From positions 1 to 50,352 of the forward strand of contig CADBNT010000003.1 of assembly GCA_902796125.1 (NCBI GenBank): a DNA stretch of 50,352 bases. Reading direction: 5' to 3'. Numbering within the stretch: position 1 is the first letter of the stretch; every line of letters begins with the position of its first letter. The notes below the pieces were generated by a model, which saw nothing but the letters and a program-made list of their open reading frames with translations, did no database searches and was not told where the DNA came from. Positions 15,914-22,622 of this stretch are shown here, piece after piece. The position numbers were made by a program, and so were the translations under genes. This stretch comes from an uncultured Erysipelotrichaceae bacterium. GTDB taxonomy: Bacteria > Bacillota_I > Bacilli_A > RFN20 > CAG-826.

Positions 15914-15949
15914 AAAAATGACTCAGGCAAACGCTTGAGTCTTTTATTT
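15912..15949. terminator. Bidirectional intrinsic terminator
   Basis: A7-TGACTCAGGC-AAAC-GCTTGAGTC-TTTT between convergent genes. Confidence 0.85.
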
Positions 15950-18106
15950 ATTTAAGTAGTTATAAAGCAATAGAGATTGGTATGGAGAATAACCATAAAT
16001 ACGGTAAATTATTTCCCCACCTTCTTCAGTTTCTTCAACGTCATCGGTATCGATATAGGCACTTGTATTTTCATTTGCAGAAATCTCCAAATATAAGTTA
16101 TTAAAGAATTCTCCTATATCACCCAAAAGATCGTGTTCTTTCCAGTATTTATTTATATAAGAAGCATCTCCCCAGATTTTGCTATCAATACCTTTAATAA
16201 AATCGGTGTAATCGGATTCAATATTTGTCGCTTTTACTAAATTTCCAAGTGAGAAAAATGTAGCCATATATGCAGAGTATTTGATGTATGAATTATCGCT
16301 ATTTAAACATACATACGCAGCAACTAAATTAGCATCTTCTTCCCTCATTACGCCTTTACTATGCGCTAGCTCGTGAGCGAGTGTTACGGGTATCTCTGCA
16401 GCAGGGGCGTCAATGTTGTAATTAGGCTCATATGTAGCTGGAAATGTAATGCCTGTAATCTGTAATTGGCTATAAAGCCAACTAAGCATATACATAGGTT
16501 TTCCGTTTAAAGTAAATTCATGATAATAATCTTGTCCGTCTAGTAGTTTGAATTCATCTTTTACAAGTCTATTTAATTCATCCCAAGAGTATGGATTAAT
16601 AACAGATCCATCCTCTCTAAATGTAAGTTCGTTTGCTACTTTGTTAAAGTCCTCTTCATAATACATAGCCATTTCTTTATAGATGGATGTACCTTCAAAG
16701 ATTTCTTCGTATTGCGGGACAGGTGGTCTATCACGATAATAGCCTAATCCAAACGTCATTGCATAACATGTAAGAGCGCTTGCAATTACAATGCCTAAAT
16801 CAATGATTCTAGTGAATGATTTTTTAATACCTTTTTTGGAAGTGTGAATAATGAAAAATACTAGCCATAAAATTAAAGAAATTACTATTAAGAAGAGTGA
16901 TATTTCAAATATGGAAAATGGTATCCATGTAAAAGCGTGTCCAAAGATGAAAGCAAAGAACTTTCCAACAGTTCTTGTGTAGCCCTCAGACACACCTGGA
17001 ATATATCTAATTAGGAACAATAAAAGGAATGTAAATAATCCTCCTCCTAAAGTAATTAATCTTCCTCTTAATGTGATCTTTCTTCTTCCTTTAAGACAAC
17101 GTTTATCTTTAGCAATAATGTCGTCGCACATGTCATAAATAGACTCTTCGACAGGACGTGCTTTAAACCCTAATTCGTTTATGGCCTTACTGCTATCGAA
17201 ATAATTGTTGTTTTCAATAGTTCGAATAGCAGTTTTTGTGTATAAAGGAGTGATGTGGAATAGTTTGCAGAAAAATGAATAGATAGGTGCGACGAATTTT
17301 ATAAACCAACACGGCAGTTTTAGGCGCAATTTTTTGCGGTTGTAATGTTCAGCAATAATGTTCAAAAAATCAGATATTTGCATGGATTTTGCACTAATTA
17401 TGTAGTTATTTCCAAGCTTACCTTTATCAAGCGCTTTTAAAGAAATTTCGGCTAAATCTCTGACGTCAATTAAACTATAGGATCCGTCCTTAACTGAGGC
17501 AGGAATATGGCCTTTTAGGAAAGCTTTCACTAATGAAGTAAAATCACCACACTTAGGATCGTCAGGACCAATAATTCCAGATGGATGGATAGTAATTGCG
17601 TTGAGCCCTTTTTCAGCCATTTGCTTGATATACTTTGCAGTCATGGACTTACTAAAGGCATAGCATCCTTTTTCAGGATTATCTTCAAATGGATTAGATT
17701 CATTAATGCTTTGATTCTTGCCTATATTTTTAAAGGCTGTTGTGGAAGATATATAAAGAAACTTTTCTACTTTATTTCTATAAGAAATATCAGCAAGATT
17801 TTTTGTTCCAAAATAGTTTGTGTCGAAAATAGCTTTTTCAAATTTATCATTAATTGAGATATATGCAGCGCAATGAATAACTATTTGTTTAACGTCATCG
17901 GATTTTTTTGTACTTAAAAATCTTTCGCAGGCATCTTTGTCTCGAACGTCTCCAAAAACAAGAGACACTTTATCTTTAATTTTTGAAATACGTTCAGTTT
18001 TTTTTCGAATTAAAAGAACAACTTCCTCATTTTGTTTTAGAAGAAGCTTTAATATTTCGTTTCCAACCCATCCTGTCGCACCAGTAAGGTAATAGATTTT
18101 ATGCAT
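15944..18106 (-). CDS. Fusion: NAD-dependent epimerase/dehydratase (extended SDR) + TM segments + DUF3810-like HExxH domain
   Basis: N-half TGATGWVG, HCAA, YAFSK, HPSGIIGP; C-half PFSIFE, GITFP.T.E.N.N, HELAH..G..REEDAN. Confidence 0.8.
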   Translation of the reverse strand: MHKIYYLTGATGWVGNEILKLLLKQNEEVVLLIRKKTERISKIKDKVSLVFGDVRDKDACERFLSTKKSDDVKQIVIHCAAYISINDKFEKAIFDTNYFGTKNLADISYRNKVEKFLYISSTTAFKNIGKNQSINESNPFEDNPEKGCYAFSKSMTAKYIKQMAEKGLNAITIHPSGIIGPDDPKCGDFTSLVKAFLKGHIPASVKDGSYSLIDVRDLAEISLKALDKGKLGNNYIISAKSMQISDFLNIIAEHYNRKKLRLKLPCWFIKFVAPIYSFFCKLFHITPLYTKTAIRTIENNNYFDSSKAINELGFKARPVEESIYDMCDDIIAKDKRCLKGRRKITLRGRLITLGGGLFTFLLLFLIRYIPGVSEGYTRTVGKFFAFIFGHAFTWIPFSIFEISLFLIVISLILWLVFFIIHTSKKGIKKSFTRIIDLGIVIASALTCYAMTFGLGYYRDRPPVPQYEEIFEGTSIYKEMAMYYEEDFNKVANELTFREDGSVINPYSWDELNRLVKDEFKLLDGQDYYHEFTLNGKPMYMLSWLYSQLQITGITFPATYEPNYNIDAPAAEIPVTLAHELAHSKGVMREEDANLVAAYVCLNSDNSYIKYSAYMATFFSLGNLVKATNIESDYTDFIKGIDSKIWGDASYINKYWKEHDLLGDIGEFFNNLYLEISANENTSAYIDTDDVEETEEGGEIIYRIYGYSPYQSLLLYNYLNK

Positions 18107-18190: not shown

Positions 18191-19120
18191 ATGTCGATAT
18201 TAAAACTCCCTTTAAGCTTTGCGAAAAGAAACATGGCGAAAGGTGAAAAGAAATTTAATAATTCCCATCGAAGCTATGGAAACTATAACGTAAAAAAAGA
18301 TCTTTCGTATGTCGATGATGGTTTAAGAGAACATAAGTTGGATATTTATACCCCAGTCAAAGATTGGAACGGAATAACCATCTTAACTATTCATGGTGGG
18401 GGCTACGTTCATGGTTGGAAAGACACAAACTCAGTTTTTATTTCTTGGTTTGTTAATAAAGGCTTTTCTGTTGTATCGATGAATTATCGCTTAGCAAGCC
18501 AATTTGATGACGTTGCATTTCCGGATCAAGTTAGAGATGTTATTGCTGTTTTAAAGTTTATCGAACATAACTGGAAATATTATGGAATAAGCAAAGATAA
18601 ATTATGCATCATGGGAGATTCTTCGGGTGGGCATCTTTCACTCATAACTGATATAGTCTTCCACGATAAAGAAGCACAAGATTTCTATAAAATAGAAAAA
18701 TTGCCAAACGTCAAGATAAATGCAGTTGCCTTAAACTCTCCGATGTATGACTACGCAGAAGTTGTGAAATTAGGTCAAAAACTATTAACCAAAAAGTCAT
18801 GTAGAGACCTTTTCTCAAAGAACTATTTAGACCAAGAATACGTAAAACTAAATAATCCAAAATATTACCTTCATAAGAAGATTCCTCTTGAGCCATTGTT
18901 TGCTAATTCAGCAGCGAAGGATTTCTTTAATAATCAGACTCGTTTGCTTAAAAAAGATTGTGACAAACTCGGTTATAGTCTTGAATACATTTTTGAGCTT
19001 GTAGCAGATAAAAGAGTAGGCCATGTATACAATCACTTTATTCTCGATGACGAAGAAGGAATTAGATGCAATGAAGCAATGGTTAATTTCTTCATAAAAA
19101 ATGTGAATGTTGATAAATAA
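18191..19120 (+). CDS. Alpha/beta hydrolase, hormone-sensitive-lipase-like esterase
   Basis: LDIY.P, IHGGGY, NYRLA, GDSSGG, late His (GHVY). Start reassigned to ATG 18191. Confidence 0.88.
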   Translation: MSILKLPLSFAKRNMAKGEKKFNNSHRSYGNYNVKKDLSYVDDGLREHKLDIYTPVKDWNGITILTIHGGGYVHGWKDTNSVFISWFVNKGFSVVSMNYRLASQFDDVAFPDQVRDVIAVLKFIEHNWKYYGISKDKLCIMGDSSGGHLSLITDIVFHDKEAQDFYKIEKLPNVKINAVALNSPMYDYAEVVKLGQKLLTKKSCRDLFSKNYLDQEYVKLNNPKYYLHKKIPLEPLFANSAAKDFFNNQTRLLKKDCDKLGYSLEYIFELVADKRVGHVYNHFILDDEEGIRCNEAMVNFFIKNVNVDK

Positions 19121-19138
19121 TTATCAATTTAATAGAAT
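19110..19138 (+). promoter_or_regulatory. Promoter of the polyamine operon with 7-4-7 palindrome over the -35
   Basis: TTGATA-N17-TAGAAT; TTGATAA-ATAA-TTATCAA at 19110-19127. Confidence 0.65.
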
Positions 19139-19147
19139 TATTTGCAT

Positions 19148-21775
19148 ATGAAAAAGCTAGATCAGAGTAAAACACCATATTTAGACGCACTAAAGAAATA
19201 TGTAAGTGCTGATGTACTTCCTTTGGACGTTCCAGGACACCATATGGGAAACGTCTCTAATAAGTTAAAAACATTTCTTGGAAGTCAAACATATAGATGT
19301 GATATCAATGCTCCAATTGGAATGGATAACTTAGCAAACCCATCAGCGGTTTTAAAACAAGCCGAAGATTTATTTGCTAATTTTGCCCATGCGAATCACA
19401 GTTTCTTTTTAATTAATGGCACATCAAGCGGAATCCTCGCTATGATTATGACTGTATGTAAAGCTAATGATAGAATCATTCTTCCACGTAACGTCCATAA
19501 ATCAATTATTAGTGCTTTAATTCTTTCAGGTGCATCGCCTGTGTACATCATGCCTCGCATCGATAGCGCGCTTGAAATCGCAAACCAACCATCTGTGGAT
19601 GATTATGTTAAAGCAATGCAAAAATATCCTACTGCTAAAGCAGTGTTTGTAATTAACCCTACTTATTTTGGTGCTGTCGCTGATTTAAAACGCATTGTTA
19701 AAGAAGCTCACGCTAGAGGAATGAAAGTTCTTGTTGATGAGGCTCATGGTGCGCATTACTACTTCGATAGACAAGGTCCTGTTTCTGCAATGGATGCAGG
19801 AGCAGATATGGCTGCTGTTAGTTTTCACAAAACAGGCGGAAGCCTAACTCAATCTAGCGTTCTTTTACTTAAATCTAACGACATTGATCCAGCTATTGTT
19901 CAAAAGACACTCAATATTATTAACACAACATCTCCATCAACACTTTTAATGGCGTCAATTGATGCAGCACGACAATATGTTGCAACGAAAGGTGCCGAAA
20001 ACATGGCAAGAGTTCATGCTCTTTCCAAATATGTTCGCGATGAGATTGCTAAAATCAAAGGATTTAAGCCATGTAATAAAAGTCATTTCCTTAGTAGAGG
20101 ATGCTTTGACTATGATGATACAAAATTAGTTATTCAACTAGAGCATCTAGATATCAATGGTTTTGATTTATATCATCTCTTAAAAGATCAATACAATATT
20201 CAGATGGAGCTTGCTGAAACATATGTTGTAATGGGAATTTTAGCCATTGGTTCTAGCAAAGCTCAAATGGTTAGACTTGTTAAAGCGTTAAAGGATGTTT
20301 CAAAGAAACACTATAACAAGAAATATGATTATCAACACCATGCTTTTGGTGTCGACTTCCCATTCCAAATTGTACGCCCACGTTCTGCGTATCATGCGCC
20401 AGGAATTAAGCTTCCAATTAGCAAAGCTATCAATACAATTTCTAAAGAATCAATTATGATTTATCCACCTGGAATCCCATTAATTGTTCCAGGAGAAGTT
20501 TTCACTAAAGAACTCGTCGATAGAATAAAAGAATATAAGAAGTTAGGTGTAACCATTTTAAGTGACTATGGTGCTGATGTTATCAATGCCATCGATGTCG
20601 AAAAATGGCCATATTACCACGTTTATAAAAACAAACTTAACGACTATCTTGAAAAGAGACTTACCACACCTCGTGGTGACGATTATGAAATGCCATTTGA
20701 AGGTGGTAAACACAGTGGCACAATTGTTCTTCTTCCATATCGTAAAGATACTTGGAGAAAGAATGCTGAACCAGCCATTAAGAACTATAAAGAAGTCATT
20801 ACAGCTATTGCGAAATATGAGCCTGTTTATGTTGGAATTTCACCAAGAATTTATGACAAAGTCATAAATAGATTTTCAAATATTAAGAATGTTTATCCAA
20901 TAAAGATTAAATACAATGACGCCTGGGCAAGAGATAATTCTCCTATCTTTGTTACAAACGGTAACAAGATGAGAATAGTTGATTTTAGATTCAATGCCTG
21001 GGGTGGCGAAGTCGATGGACTTTATTCTAACTACAAGGATGATGATTTATTAACCAAAAACCTCGCCAAGAAGTTTGGTGTCGAACGTTATTATCTTGAT
21101 GATTTCATCCTTGAAGGCGGAAGTATCCATGTCGATGGAGAAAAGACCTGTTTAGTCACAAAAGCCTGTCTTTTATCCAAAGGTAGAAACCCACTTTTAA
21201 GCCAACTTGAAATCGAAGAAACATTGAAGATTTACTTAGGTGTTAGTAAGGTTATTTGGCTTGATCATGGTATTTATGAAGATGAAACAAATGAGCATAT
21301 CGATAATATGGCATGTTTCATTAGACCTGGAGTTATCGCTTTAGCATGGACCACCGATAGAAGTGATCCTCAATACGCTTATTCAAAAGCAGCATATGAT
21401 GTGCTTAAGAATTCAACTGACGCTATGGGCCGTAAGTTTGAAATCGTTAAGATTAAGCTTCCAAAGCCACTTTATATGTCAAAGAGTGAGGCTAAAGGAA
21501 TTAAGAATAGTAGATATGACGCCAAGCCAAGAACCGAAGGTTCTAGACTTGCTGCCTCATATATCAACTTTTACCAAGGCGAAAAATTCGTTATTCTTCC
21601 AGCCTTTGGAGTTCCTGAAGATGCTCTTGCTAAAAAACAACTTCAAAAACTCTATCCAGAAAAAGACATTATCCAAATCGAATCTAAAGAAATATTGCTC
21701 GGCGGTGGAAACATTCACTGTATCACTATGCAAATTCCATATAATGAGGAGTTTATAAAGAAAAATGAAAATTAA
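19148..21775 (+). CDS. Fusion: PLP fold-type-I arginine (Orn/Lys/Arg) decarboxylase + agmatine deiminase
   Basis: N-half VPGH, NGTS, RNVHKS, VDEAHG, SFHK, TTSPS, YPPGIP; C-half from about codon 506 DAWARD, FNAWGG, LEGGSIHVDG, DET..HID, ASYINF, GGGNIHCIT. Arginine specificity inferred from context. Confidence 0.92.
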   Translation: MKKLDQSKTPYLDALKKYVSADVLPLDVPGHHMGNVSNKLKTFLGSQTYRCDINAPIGMDNLANPSAVLKQAEDLFANFAHANHSFFLINGTSSGILAMIMTVCKANDRIILPRNVHKSIISALILSGASPVYIMPRIDSALEIANQPSVDDYVKAMQKYPTAKAVFVINPTYFGAVADLKRIVKEAHARGMKVLVDEAHGAHYYFDRQGPVSAMDAGADMAAVSFHKTGGSLTQSSVLLLKSNDIDPAIVQKTLNIINTTSPSTLLMASIDAARQYVATKGAENMARVHALSKYVRDEIAKIKGFKPCNKSHFLSRGCFDYDDTKLVIQLEHLDINGFDLYHLLKDQYNIQMELAETYVVMGILAIGSSKAQMVRLVKALKDVSKKHYNKKYDYQHHAFGVDFPFQIVRPRSAYHAPGIKLPISKAINTISKESIMIYPPGIPLIVPGEVFTKELVDRIKEYKKLGVTILSDYGADVINAIDVEKWPYYHVYKNKLNDYLEKRLTTPRGDDYEMPFEGGKHSGTIVLLPYRKDTWRKNAEPAIKNYKEVITAIAKYEPVYVGISPRIYDKVINRFSNIKNVYPIKIKYNDAWARDNSPIFVTNGNKMRIVDFRFNAWGGEVDGLYSNYKDDDLLTKNLAKKFGVERYYLDDFILEGGSIHVDGEKTCLVTKACLLSKGRNPLLSQLEIEETLKIYLGVSKVIWLDHGIYEDETNEHIDNMACFIRPGVIALAWTTDRSDPQYAYSKAAYDVLKNSTDAMGRKFEIVKIKLPKPLYMSKSEAKGIKNSRYDAKPRTEGSRLAASYINFYQGEKFVILPAFGVPEDALAKKQLQKLYPEKDIIQIESKEILLGGGNIHCITMQIPYNEEFIKKNEN

Positions 21776-22622
21776 AGTTGCTATCACTCAAATGAGTTGC
21801 TCATCAAACTACGATGAGAACATTTCTAAAGCAGAAAAATTAGTTGAAGAAGCTGCTAAAAAAGGCGCAAATATCATACTTTTGCAGGAATTATTCTCAA
21901 ATTTATACTTCTGCCAAGTTGAAGATTATGATAAATTTGCCCTTGCAGAAGAAAGAGAAAAATCGCCTCTTATCAAACACTTAAAAGCTGTTGCAAAGAA
22001 ATATGGTGTTGTTCTTCCTATTTCCTTTTTTGAGAAATCTGGAACCAACTATTTTAATTCTTTAGTGATGATTGATGCTGATGGAAAAGATCTCGGCTTA
22101 TATAGAAAGACTCATATTCCAACAGGCCAATGTTATGAAGAAAAATTCTACTTCTCTCCAGGTGATACTGGCTTTAAAGTTTTTAAGACAAAATTTGGTA
22201 GAGTAGGCATCGGAATTTGCTGGGATCAATGGTTCCCTGAAACAGCAAGAATTTTAGCACTTGAAGGTGCAGAAATTATTCTTTATCCAACCGCCATTGG
22301 AAGTGAGCCTGTTTTAGTCAGAGACTCAATGCCACACTGGAGAAATACGATGTGCGGTCATGCGGCTGCAAACATTATTCCTGTCTGTGCTTCCAACAGA
22401 GTTGGAAAAGAAGTAGCTGGTGACTCATCAATGGTCTTCCAAGGCTATTCTTTTATCGCTAACCAATATGGTGAAGTCGTTGAAGAAATGGACCGTAAAG
22501 AAGAAGGTGTGAAAGTTCACGAATTCGACCTAGAAGAAATCGATAAAGAAAGAGTATCTTGGGGTGTGTTTAGAGATAGACGTCCTGAGTGCTATGGAAA
22601 GATAAAAAAGTATTCAAAATAA
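21765..22622 (+). CDS. aguB: N-carbamoylputrescine amidase
   Basis: Nitrilase fold: LQELF, YRKTHIP..CYEEKFYFSPGD, GICWDQWFPE, YPTAIGSEP, FRDRRP. Confidence 0.95.
   Translation: MKIKVAITQMSCSSNYDENISKAEKLVEEAAKKGANIILLQELFSNLYFCQVEDYDKFALAEEREKSPLIKHLKAVAKKYGVVLPISFFEKSGTNYFNSLVMIDADGKDLGLYRKTHIPTGQCYEEKFYFSPGDTGFKVFKTKFGRVGIGICWDQWFPETARILALEGAEIILYPTAIGSEPVLVRDSMPHWRNTMCGHAAANIIPVCASNRVGKEVAGDSSMVFQGYSFIANQYGEVVEEMDRKEEGVKVHEFDLEEIDKERVSWGVFRDRRPECYGKIKKYSK

Follow-up and report, generated by a model that had tools for sequence, protein, structure and literature searches.

Firmicutes are known to have separate genes for the three enzymes that lead from arginine to putrescine, namely SpeA, an arginine decarboxylase (ADC) of the ancestral-form aspartate aminotransferase (AAT) fold (the Bacillus subtilis type), the agmatine deiminase AguA and the N-carbamoylputrescine amidase AguB. 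We describe here a locus of an uncultured Erysipelotrichaceae bacterium at positions 19148 to 22622 of a 50,352-nucleotide stretch of its draft genome (contig CADBNT010000003.1, positions 1 to 50,352, forward strand; this whole stretch is called the window below). The same three families with the same predicted chemistry are encoded there, but unlike the separate genes of Firmicutes the first two enzymes form one polypeptide, the product of a gene that we call speA::aguA, and speE, CASDH and CASDC do not lie alongside. It is probable, in our view, that the fused protein is a natural bifunctional enzyme that together with aguB makes up a complete arginine-to-putrescine biosynthesis route of two polypeptides, and that the fusion arose once, by the merging of two reading frames. 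The N-terminal half would most likely convert L-arginine to agmatine, the C-terminal half agmatine to N-carbamoylputrescine and ammonia, and AguB would then convert N-carbamoylputrescine to putrescine, CO2 and ammonia. What we infer from the sequences is that arginine is the substrate, that both halves are active, that the role is biosynthetic and that agmatine may be channelled.

Fusions of S-adenosylmethionine decarboxylase (AdoMetDC) with aminopropyltransferase are reportedly the subject of Green et al. 2011. SpeD-SpeD(ODC) fusions (ODC, ornithine decarboxylase) are known from the accessible part of PMC10407285, and both kinds likewise hold related or consecutive polyamine enzymes in one chain, but the enzymes and the steps are other ones. 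As far as the available portion of Li et al. (2021; PMC8503589) goes, the closest described case is the aODC-arginase-like fusion of Fusobacterium nucleatum. As here, a decarboxylase of the same family is joined to a C-terminal partner taken from the agmatine-to-putrescine step; there, however, the decarboxylase is an ODC and the partner has an arginase fold and is probably inactive, whereas the locus described here has a deiminase-fold AguA with all catalytic residues kept. A Fusobacterium-like architecture, OKR_DC_1 + Arginase, was also seen in one of the 50% representatives of the protein collection (P0137). No published fusion of an arginine decarboxylase with an agmatine deiminase was found in the literature searched, in which older papers are incompletely covered; the first-pass annotation of the window had likewise known of no characterized fusion of this type. 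The gene is thus a fusion of two known consecutive enzymes that is apparently uncharacterized.

Domains and junction of the fused gene

The speA::aguA gene (19148..21775, + strand) is a single open frame of 875 aa plus stop that carries Pfam OKR_DC_1, OKR_DC_1_C and PAD_porph and passes the TIGR03380 cut-off. The frame itself spans 19142..21775 with its stop codon at 21773-21775, and would give 877 aa from a TTG start or 875 aa from the ATG at 19148. The annotation had read it as an 875-aa decarboxylase and AguA frame, and the open reading frame (ORF) listing, Pfam, NCBIfam and the motifs SFHK, GGGNIHC and DETNEH, all of which were found, bear this out.

The decarboxylase domain (19148..20650, + strand, residues 1 to about 501) is of the SpeA type, an AAT-fold decarboxylase dependent on pyridoxal 5′-phosphate (PLP), with OKR_DC_1 at residues 9-324 (226.2 bits, gathering score 27) and OKR_DC_1_C at residues 377-455 (31.1 bits, gathering score 24.2). 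The residues of the cofactor site are K228 in SFHK (19829-19831) and D197 and H200 in VDEAHGAH (19736-19747), which we take to be the PLP-binding lysine and the Asp/His pair. Like ancestral-form SpeA, the domain is about 500 aa long and has no REC wing at its N-terminus, the OKR_DC_1 match beginning already at residue 9, and the NCBIfam models of extended-form (winged) Arg/Orn/Lys decarboxylases score 63-67 bits against cut-offs of 794-1167. Among solved structures the best alignment of the N-terminal half is with 2x3l, a short protein of the Orn/Lys/Arg decarboxylase family. Only one decarboxylase homologue was found in the window's genome. The YaaO paralogue of this family lies directly upstream of tmk (accessible part of PMC8503589), and a YaaO-type N-terminal domain is ruled out by gene context, in that the neighbours here are aguB and a pseudouridine synthase gene, the nearest homologues outside the order lie in polyamine clusters, and a single homologue was found in the window's genome.

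The AguA domain (20651..21772, + strand, residues about 502-875) matches PAD_porph at residues 515-864 of the fusion protein (357 bits) and exceeds the cut-off of the aguA equivalog model TIGR03380 (441.7 vs. 381.8). Its alignment with agmatine deiminases of plants and streptococci (1vkp, 2ewo, 6nib, 2jer) runs over the full length, and D596, E656, H717, D719 and C858 (the last in GGGNIHC, 21719-21721) are in place and match conserved motifs of 1vkp, 2ewo and 6nib; these presumably include the catalytic Cys and His and the guanidinium-binding Asp. The sequence DETNEH has E716 before the catalytic H717 (21293-21298) instead of the usual Gly. Across 48 AguA rows residue 716 is Glu in 40 and Gly in 8. 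Glu is found in all fused proteins, in six of six aguA genes that lie next to speA as separate genes (see below) and, within another family, in three unfused aguA genes, and the Gly rows are eight separate aguA genes of a third family. Since Glu also occurs in unfused genes, the change is older than the fusion and a trait of the lineage. DETNEH, on which the annotation had remarked, was considered as a peculiarity of the fusion and is ruled out as such.

The third enzyme is encoded by aguB (21765..22622, + strand, 285 aa; Pfam CN_hydrolase), whose product surpasses the aguB equivalog cut-off (TIGR03381, 437.3 vs. 410.25) and has E42, K115 and C152, which we assume to be its Glu-Lys-Cys triad. 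It overlaps the end of the fused gene by 11 nt (ATGAAAATTAA), as the frame coordinates confirm for an overlap noticed earlier, and is followed by the pseudouridine synthase gene. Of the 30 fused loci with sequence beyond the fused gene, every one has aguB, at -11 to +98 nt from that gene. The two-gene arginine-to-putrescine route that had been proposed, complete provided that the N-terminal domain is an arginine decarboxylase, is thus supported by the domains, the motifs, the overlapping aguB and its constant position 3′ of the fusion.

The two domains meet between W487 and P516 (20606..20695, + strand), where the C-terminal helix of the decarboxylase is followed by the native AguA N-terminus. 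The C-terminal tail of the decarboxylase occupies residues 487-501 and is present too in the separate speA genes of the sister clade described below, and residues of about 502-516 are the native N-terminus of AguA, aligning from residue 4-7 of solved agmatine deiminases. An AlphaFold model has a helix at 490-501, coil at 502-521 and then the first deiminase strand (pLDDT 79, pTM 0.59; with this pTM the relative placement of the domains is unreliable). The segment had been described as a linker of roughly 20 aa without stop codon or Shine-Dalgarno-ATG pair; neither of these was found in 20590-20662, in agreement with that description, but the segment consists of decarboxylase tail and AguA N-terminus and is no linker. 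All 11 fused loci tested have the same distance, exactly 87 nt, from the conserved Trp in this tail to the Pro in the PFEG motif of the deiminase.

Distribution and origin of the fusion

In the 90% protein collection, the best 120 clusters range from 872 to 900 aa in length, are 73-98% identical to the window's protein over 99-100% of the query, and each carry PF01276 and PF04371; two of them bear a name, which is 'agmatine deiminase', from a Bacilli or Bacillota metagenome-assembled genome (MAG). When a sample of the order was searched, both halves of this OKR_DC_1 + PAD_porph architecture were matched in 29 of 201 genomes (27 of the 66 in the window's family and one in each of two other families). 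A family sample of 121 genomes, searched with a different query, had an open frame of 870-902 aa in 28 genomes and a frame of about 500 aa or shorter in 10, and the other 83 gave no match at E 1e-50. The named-genome collection held 18 complete fused loci and one fused gene cut by a contig end, in records titled as Bacilli, Bacillales, Bacillota or 'Erysipelotrichaceae' bacterium MAGs. We read 31 fused loci as single open frames, a set that includes the window's locus, one identical pair and one gene truncated at a contig end. Only a part of one family of uncultured Bacilli with small genomes has the fusion.

Runs that contain the stretch are bovine, goat and sheep gut metagenomes, and contigs of 1508 nt (goat gut) and 288 nt (bovine) from other gut runs cross the junction gap-free with no indels listed. 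Given these contigs and the same architecture in 120 clusters, the fusion is genuine and conserved and no artefact of assembly. All 30 fused sequences that were aligned, which are 54-100% identical to the window's, have K228, D197, H200, D596, E656, H717, D719 and C858 without exception, and mean conservation in this alignment is alike over the whole length of the protein. Both halves look functional, and the invariant catalytic residues and the fixed length of the junction indicate that both are under constraint.

Among the best 150 matches in the 50% representatives, both halves are spanned by only two, plus one fragment that crosses the junction. One of these two, a relative of 863 aa (P0122), has a well kept decarboxylase half, and the Asp, Glu, His/Asp and Cys motifs of its AguA half are gone (PAD_porph 28.8 bits); a metagenome scan with it found only relatives of the N-terminal domain, at 54-60% identity. 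A protein of 1051 aa (P0185) joins a PLP decarboxylase of the alanine racemase (AR) fold (Orn_Arg_deC_N + Orn_DAP_Arg_deC, weakly SpeA-like) to a full AguA (TIGR03380 445 vs. 381.8); it is not homologous to the fusion described here and unites the same two steps independently. Three other AguA fusions were seen once each, namely 5-formyltetrahydrofolate cyclo-ligase-AguA (P0164, 556 aa), an unassigned N-terminal part of 400 aa before AguA (P0269, 754 aa) and AguA-DUF4368 (P0260, 488 aa).

The closest unfused relatives, four genomes from a single genus in a sister family (G044, G068, G128 and G116) and two further MAGs (L030 and L047), have speA, aguA and aguB adjacent but separate. These operons resemble the fused locus in gene order, in the Glu before the catalytic His and in aguB lying directly downstream, and their domains are each 53-57% identical to those of the fusion; they differ in encoding two polypeptides. 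In the +1 frame, aguA starts before speA has ended, its ATG following a GGAGG that is built from speA codons, and the genes overlap by about 20 nt in one group and by 8 nt (ATGATTAA) in the other. In five of these loci the Trp-to-Pro spacing, each time in the +1 frame, is 88, 91, 91, 49 and 49 nt, as against 87 nt in the fusion, and one separate locus is therefore a single nucleotide off the fused spacing. In more distant members of the order, aguA and aguB are paired and speA is elsewhere.

In a tree of the decarboxylase domain the 31 fused rows form one clade (Shimodaira-Hasegawa-like approximate likelihood ratio test, SH-aLRT, 99) and five adjacent-but-separate rows form a sister clade (95) that joins it with a support of 83, and the separate genes of the window's own family fall outside both. 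In the deiminase-domain tree all Glu-bearing rows form a clade (98). A single fused clade with a sister clade of +1-frame overlapping genes makes the fusion look like a frame merge without a linker, and a single origin from an overlapping speA/aguA pair is the simplest reading: in an ancestral pair with overlapping frames, a change would have merged both frames, once, with no linker added. The first-pass annotation had instead derived the fusion from loss of the middle spermidine genes of an S. pneumoniae-type speA-speE-CASDH-CASDC-aguA-aguB cluster. No relative with such a cluster was seen among the loci read; that origin is rejected, the closest unfused relatives already having speA, aguA and aguB side by side.

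Two further loci may be mentioned here. One genome that is assigned to a different family (L011, G192:C30; the genome is 74% complete with 3% contamination) carries a fused gene that nests among sequences of the window's family in both trees, which indicates either horizontal transfer or an error in binning. One genus of the window's family showed no AguA match; in it, a separate speA-like gene is followed after 7 nt by a gene for a ClC-type (Voltage_CLC) channel (L054, G094:C2, 4330-7077), and this decarboxylase/ClC pairing recalls acid-resistance systems.

Probable role in polyamine metabolism

The polyamine genes of five genomes with the fusion (G000, which is the window's own, G003, G145, G018 and G153; 91.5-100% complete) were surveyed. 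The window's genome is about 1 Mb, a draft of 107 contigs. No match to AdoMet_dc (speD), to the AR-fold decarboxylase family Orn_Arg_deC_N or to the deoxyhypusine/homospermidine synthase family was found in any of the five, and the window's genome gave no nspC, its single SpeE-like ORF lying, at 39 bits, far below the cut-off of 260; CASDH was not searched for on its own. With no spermidine-gene families found, the route ends at putrescine, as had been suggested from the window alone, and a way to make spermidine was not found in the host. A potABCD-like operon is present on the 8-kb contig C69 of the window's genome (potA by TIGR01187, 359 vs. cut-off 355.6; this call comes from the NCBIfam scan of C69, since the hits of the family search were largely noise caused by other ABC ATPases). 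Two other genera have such an operon on the strand of the fused gene, 4-8 kb downstream of that gene and aguB (L074, G003:C1, 7172-19188, and L075, G153:C1, 1437-17444). Because spermidine synthesis was not found and a PotABCD-type importer is present, this uncultured Bacilli host of the ruminant gut most likely uses the route to provide itself with putrescine. The lack of an Orn_Arg_deC_N match in the five genomes also means that LysA (diaminopimelate decarboxylase) was not seen, which hints at lysine auxotrophy in these 1-Mb genomes.

The N-terminal domain could instead decarboxylate ornithine (or ornithine and lysine) and so form putrescine directly, leaving AguA and AguB to handle agmatine from the gut, and the family offers precedents in the available portion of Li et al. 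(2021; PMC8503589): its members can be ornithine or lysine decarboxylases, that of Clostridium botulinum is an ODC although the genome encodes agmatine iminohydrolase (AIH) as well as N-carbamoylputrescine amidohydrolase (NCPAH), the Fusobacterium enzyme is an ODC in spite of its arginase-like domain, and a 487-aa C. perfringens protein, which may be the one in the C. perfringens locus seen here, is listed among the closest homologues of that ODC. We nevertheless think this assignment unlikely. Arginase, agmatinase or arginine deiminase (ADI) families had no match in any of the five genomes, so no internal source of ornithine is seen, and no transporter of the amino acid-polyamine-organocation (APC) type was found in them. 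The nearest homologues outside the order are paired with agmatinase, in a speD-decarboxylase-speE-agmatinase cluster of Clostridium perfringens and a decarboxylase-agmatinase pair of Candidatus Izemoplasma. The AguA catalytic residues are invariant in all 30 fused sequences, unlike those of the inactive Fusobacterium partner, and the Bacilli enzymes assayed by Li et al. had ADC activity only, in the part of that article available. We infer that the N-terminal domain is an arginine decarboxylase because its conserved partner needs agmatine, because the outside homologues occur with agmatinase and because there is no arginase or ADI to provide ornithine.

Arginine catabolism, to sustain pH homeostasis or release ammonia, would be another conceivable task of the two genes in place of polyamine supply. 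Decarboxylation takes up a proton, two ammonia are freed along the route, the bacteria live in the rumen or gut, and in the AguA-less relative described above a separate decarboxylase gene precedes a ClC-type channel gene. The first-pass annotation had thought of acid resistance or cross-feeding, an idea that finds no support in the genomes, and catabolism is in our judgement quite improbable. An antiporter of the AdiC/AguD/PotE type (AA_permease_2) was not found in any of the five genomes, and the carbamoyltransferase family (OTCace) is matched in only one of them, G000, at two places that are not near the operon (G000:C104:16110-16544 and G000:C17:49103-49321), which speaks against an acid-resistance or ATP-yielding cycle. 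The gene set of catabolic agmatine deiminase systems (antiporter and carbamoyltransferase with aguA) was thus not found in the five genomes, in which carbamate kinase was not searched for, and there is no regulator or transporter in the fusion/aguB operon. The AguB route, moreover, gives no ATP. The two OTCace matches are candidates for pyrB, argF or ptcA.

That the long frame is an artefact of assembly or sequencing, or that one half is inactive in this particular genome, is very hard to believe. The number of contigs in the draft and the decayed AguA half of P0122 might suggest it, but the same frame is present in 31 loci from many assemblies, contigs of other runs span the junction without gaps, and the window's copy keeps every catalytic motif.

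Other points weigh, in addition to the ODC precedents, against a once-fused biosynthetic enzyme. The AguA part falls short of the subfamily model NF010070 (449.6 vs. 483), and P0122 shows that the C-terminal half can decay in this family. In the deiminase-domain tree the fused rows are not one clade but form a polytomy with a long-branched separate lineage, with 3 changes (one 'separate' row of this tree is the second half of a fused gene split between contigs), and the trees are compatible with the adjacent state of the sister clade being either ancestral or a secondary split. The absences reported above rest on draft genomes and single family models. A 151-nt contig of a sheep metatranscriptome covers 20547-20697 with 9 differences and no indels, and it may be DNA carry-over and is too short and weak to be taken as a sign of transcription.

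If both halves of the natural bifunctional enzyme are active, only two polypeptides would be needed for all three arginine-to-putrescine reactions, in bacteria with genomes reduced to about 1 Mb. A more far-reaching interpretation, that this is the first natural ADC-agmatine deiminase, that a rigid assembly of fixed length channels agmatine, that the frames merged by one nucleotide and that the convergence with P0185 implies selection for low free agmatine, seems to us doubtful as a whole. The main value of the locus is as a natural test system for the effects of joining consecutive enzymes: the overlapping separate genes of the sister clade, the relative with the decayed deiminase and the non-homologous decarboxylase-AguA fusion are natural controls, and such a fused, separate and decayed set is suited to telling substrate channelling from mere co-expression. 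As the public label of the fused proteins is 'agmatine deiminase', pathway reconstructions for the rumen and gut may overlook the arginine decarboxylase.

Upstream region and neighbouring genes

An esterase gene upstream stops 27 nt short of the ATG of speA::aguA. A promoter-like site, TTGATA-17-TAGAAT (19110..19138, + strand), ends 9 nt before the ATG; it is a consensus match only, and sites of this type number 21 in the region against 23.1 expected from shuffles. No Shine-Dalgarno sequence is visible before the ATG (19110-19148), and this together with the nearness of the promoter-like site makes a short-leader or leaderless mRNA possible.

Two genes upstream of speA::aguA, on the opposite strand and with the esterase gene in between, there is a second two-domain fusion: the 720-aa product of 15944-18106 (- strand) consists of an NAD-dependent epimerase/dehydratase (residues 6-236) and DUF3810 (residues 376-677).

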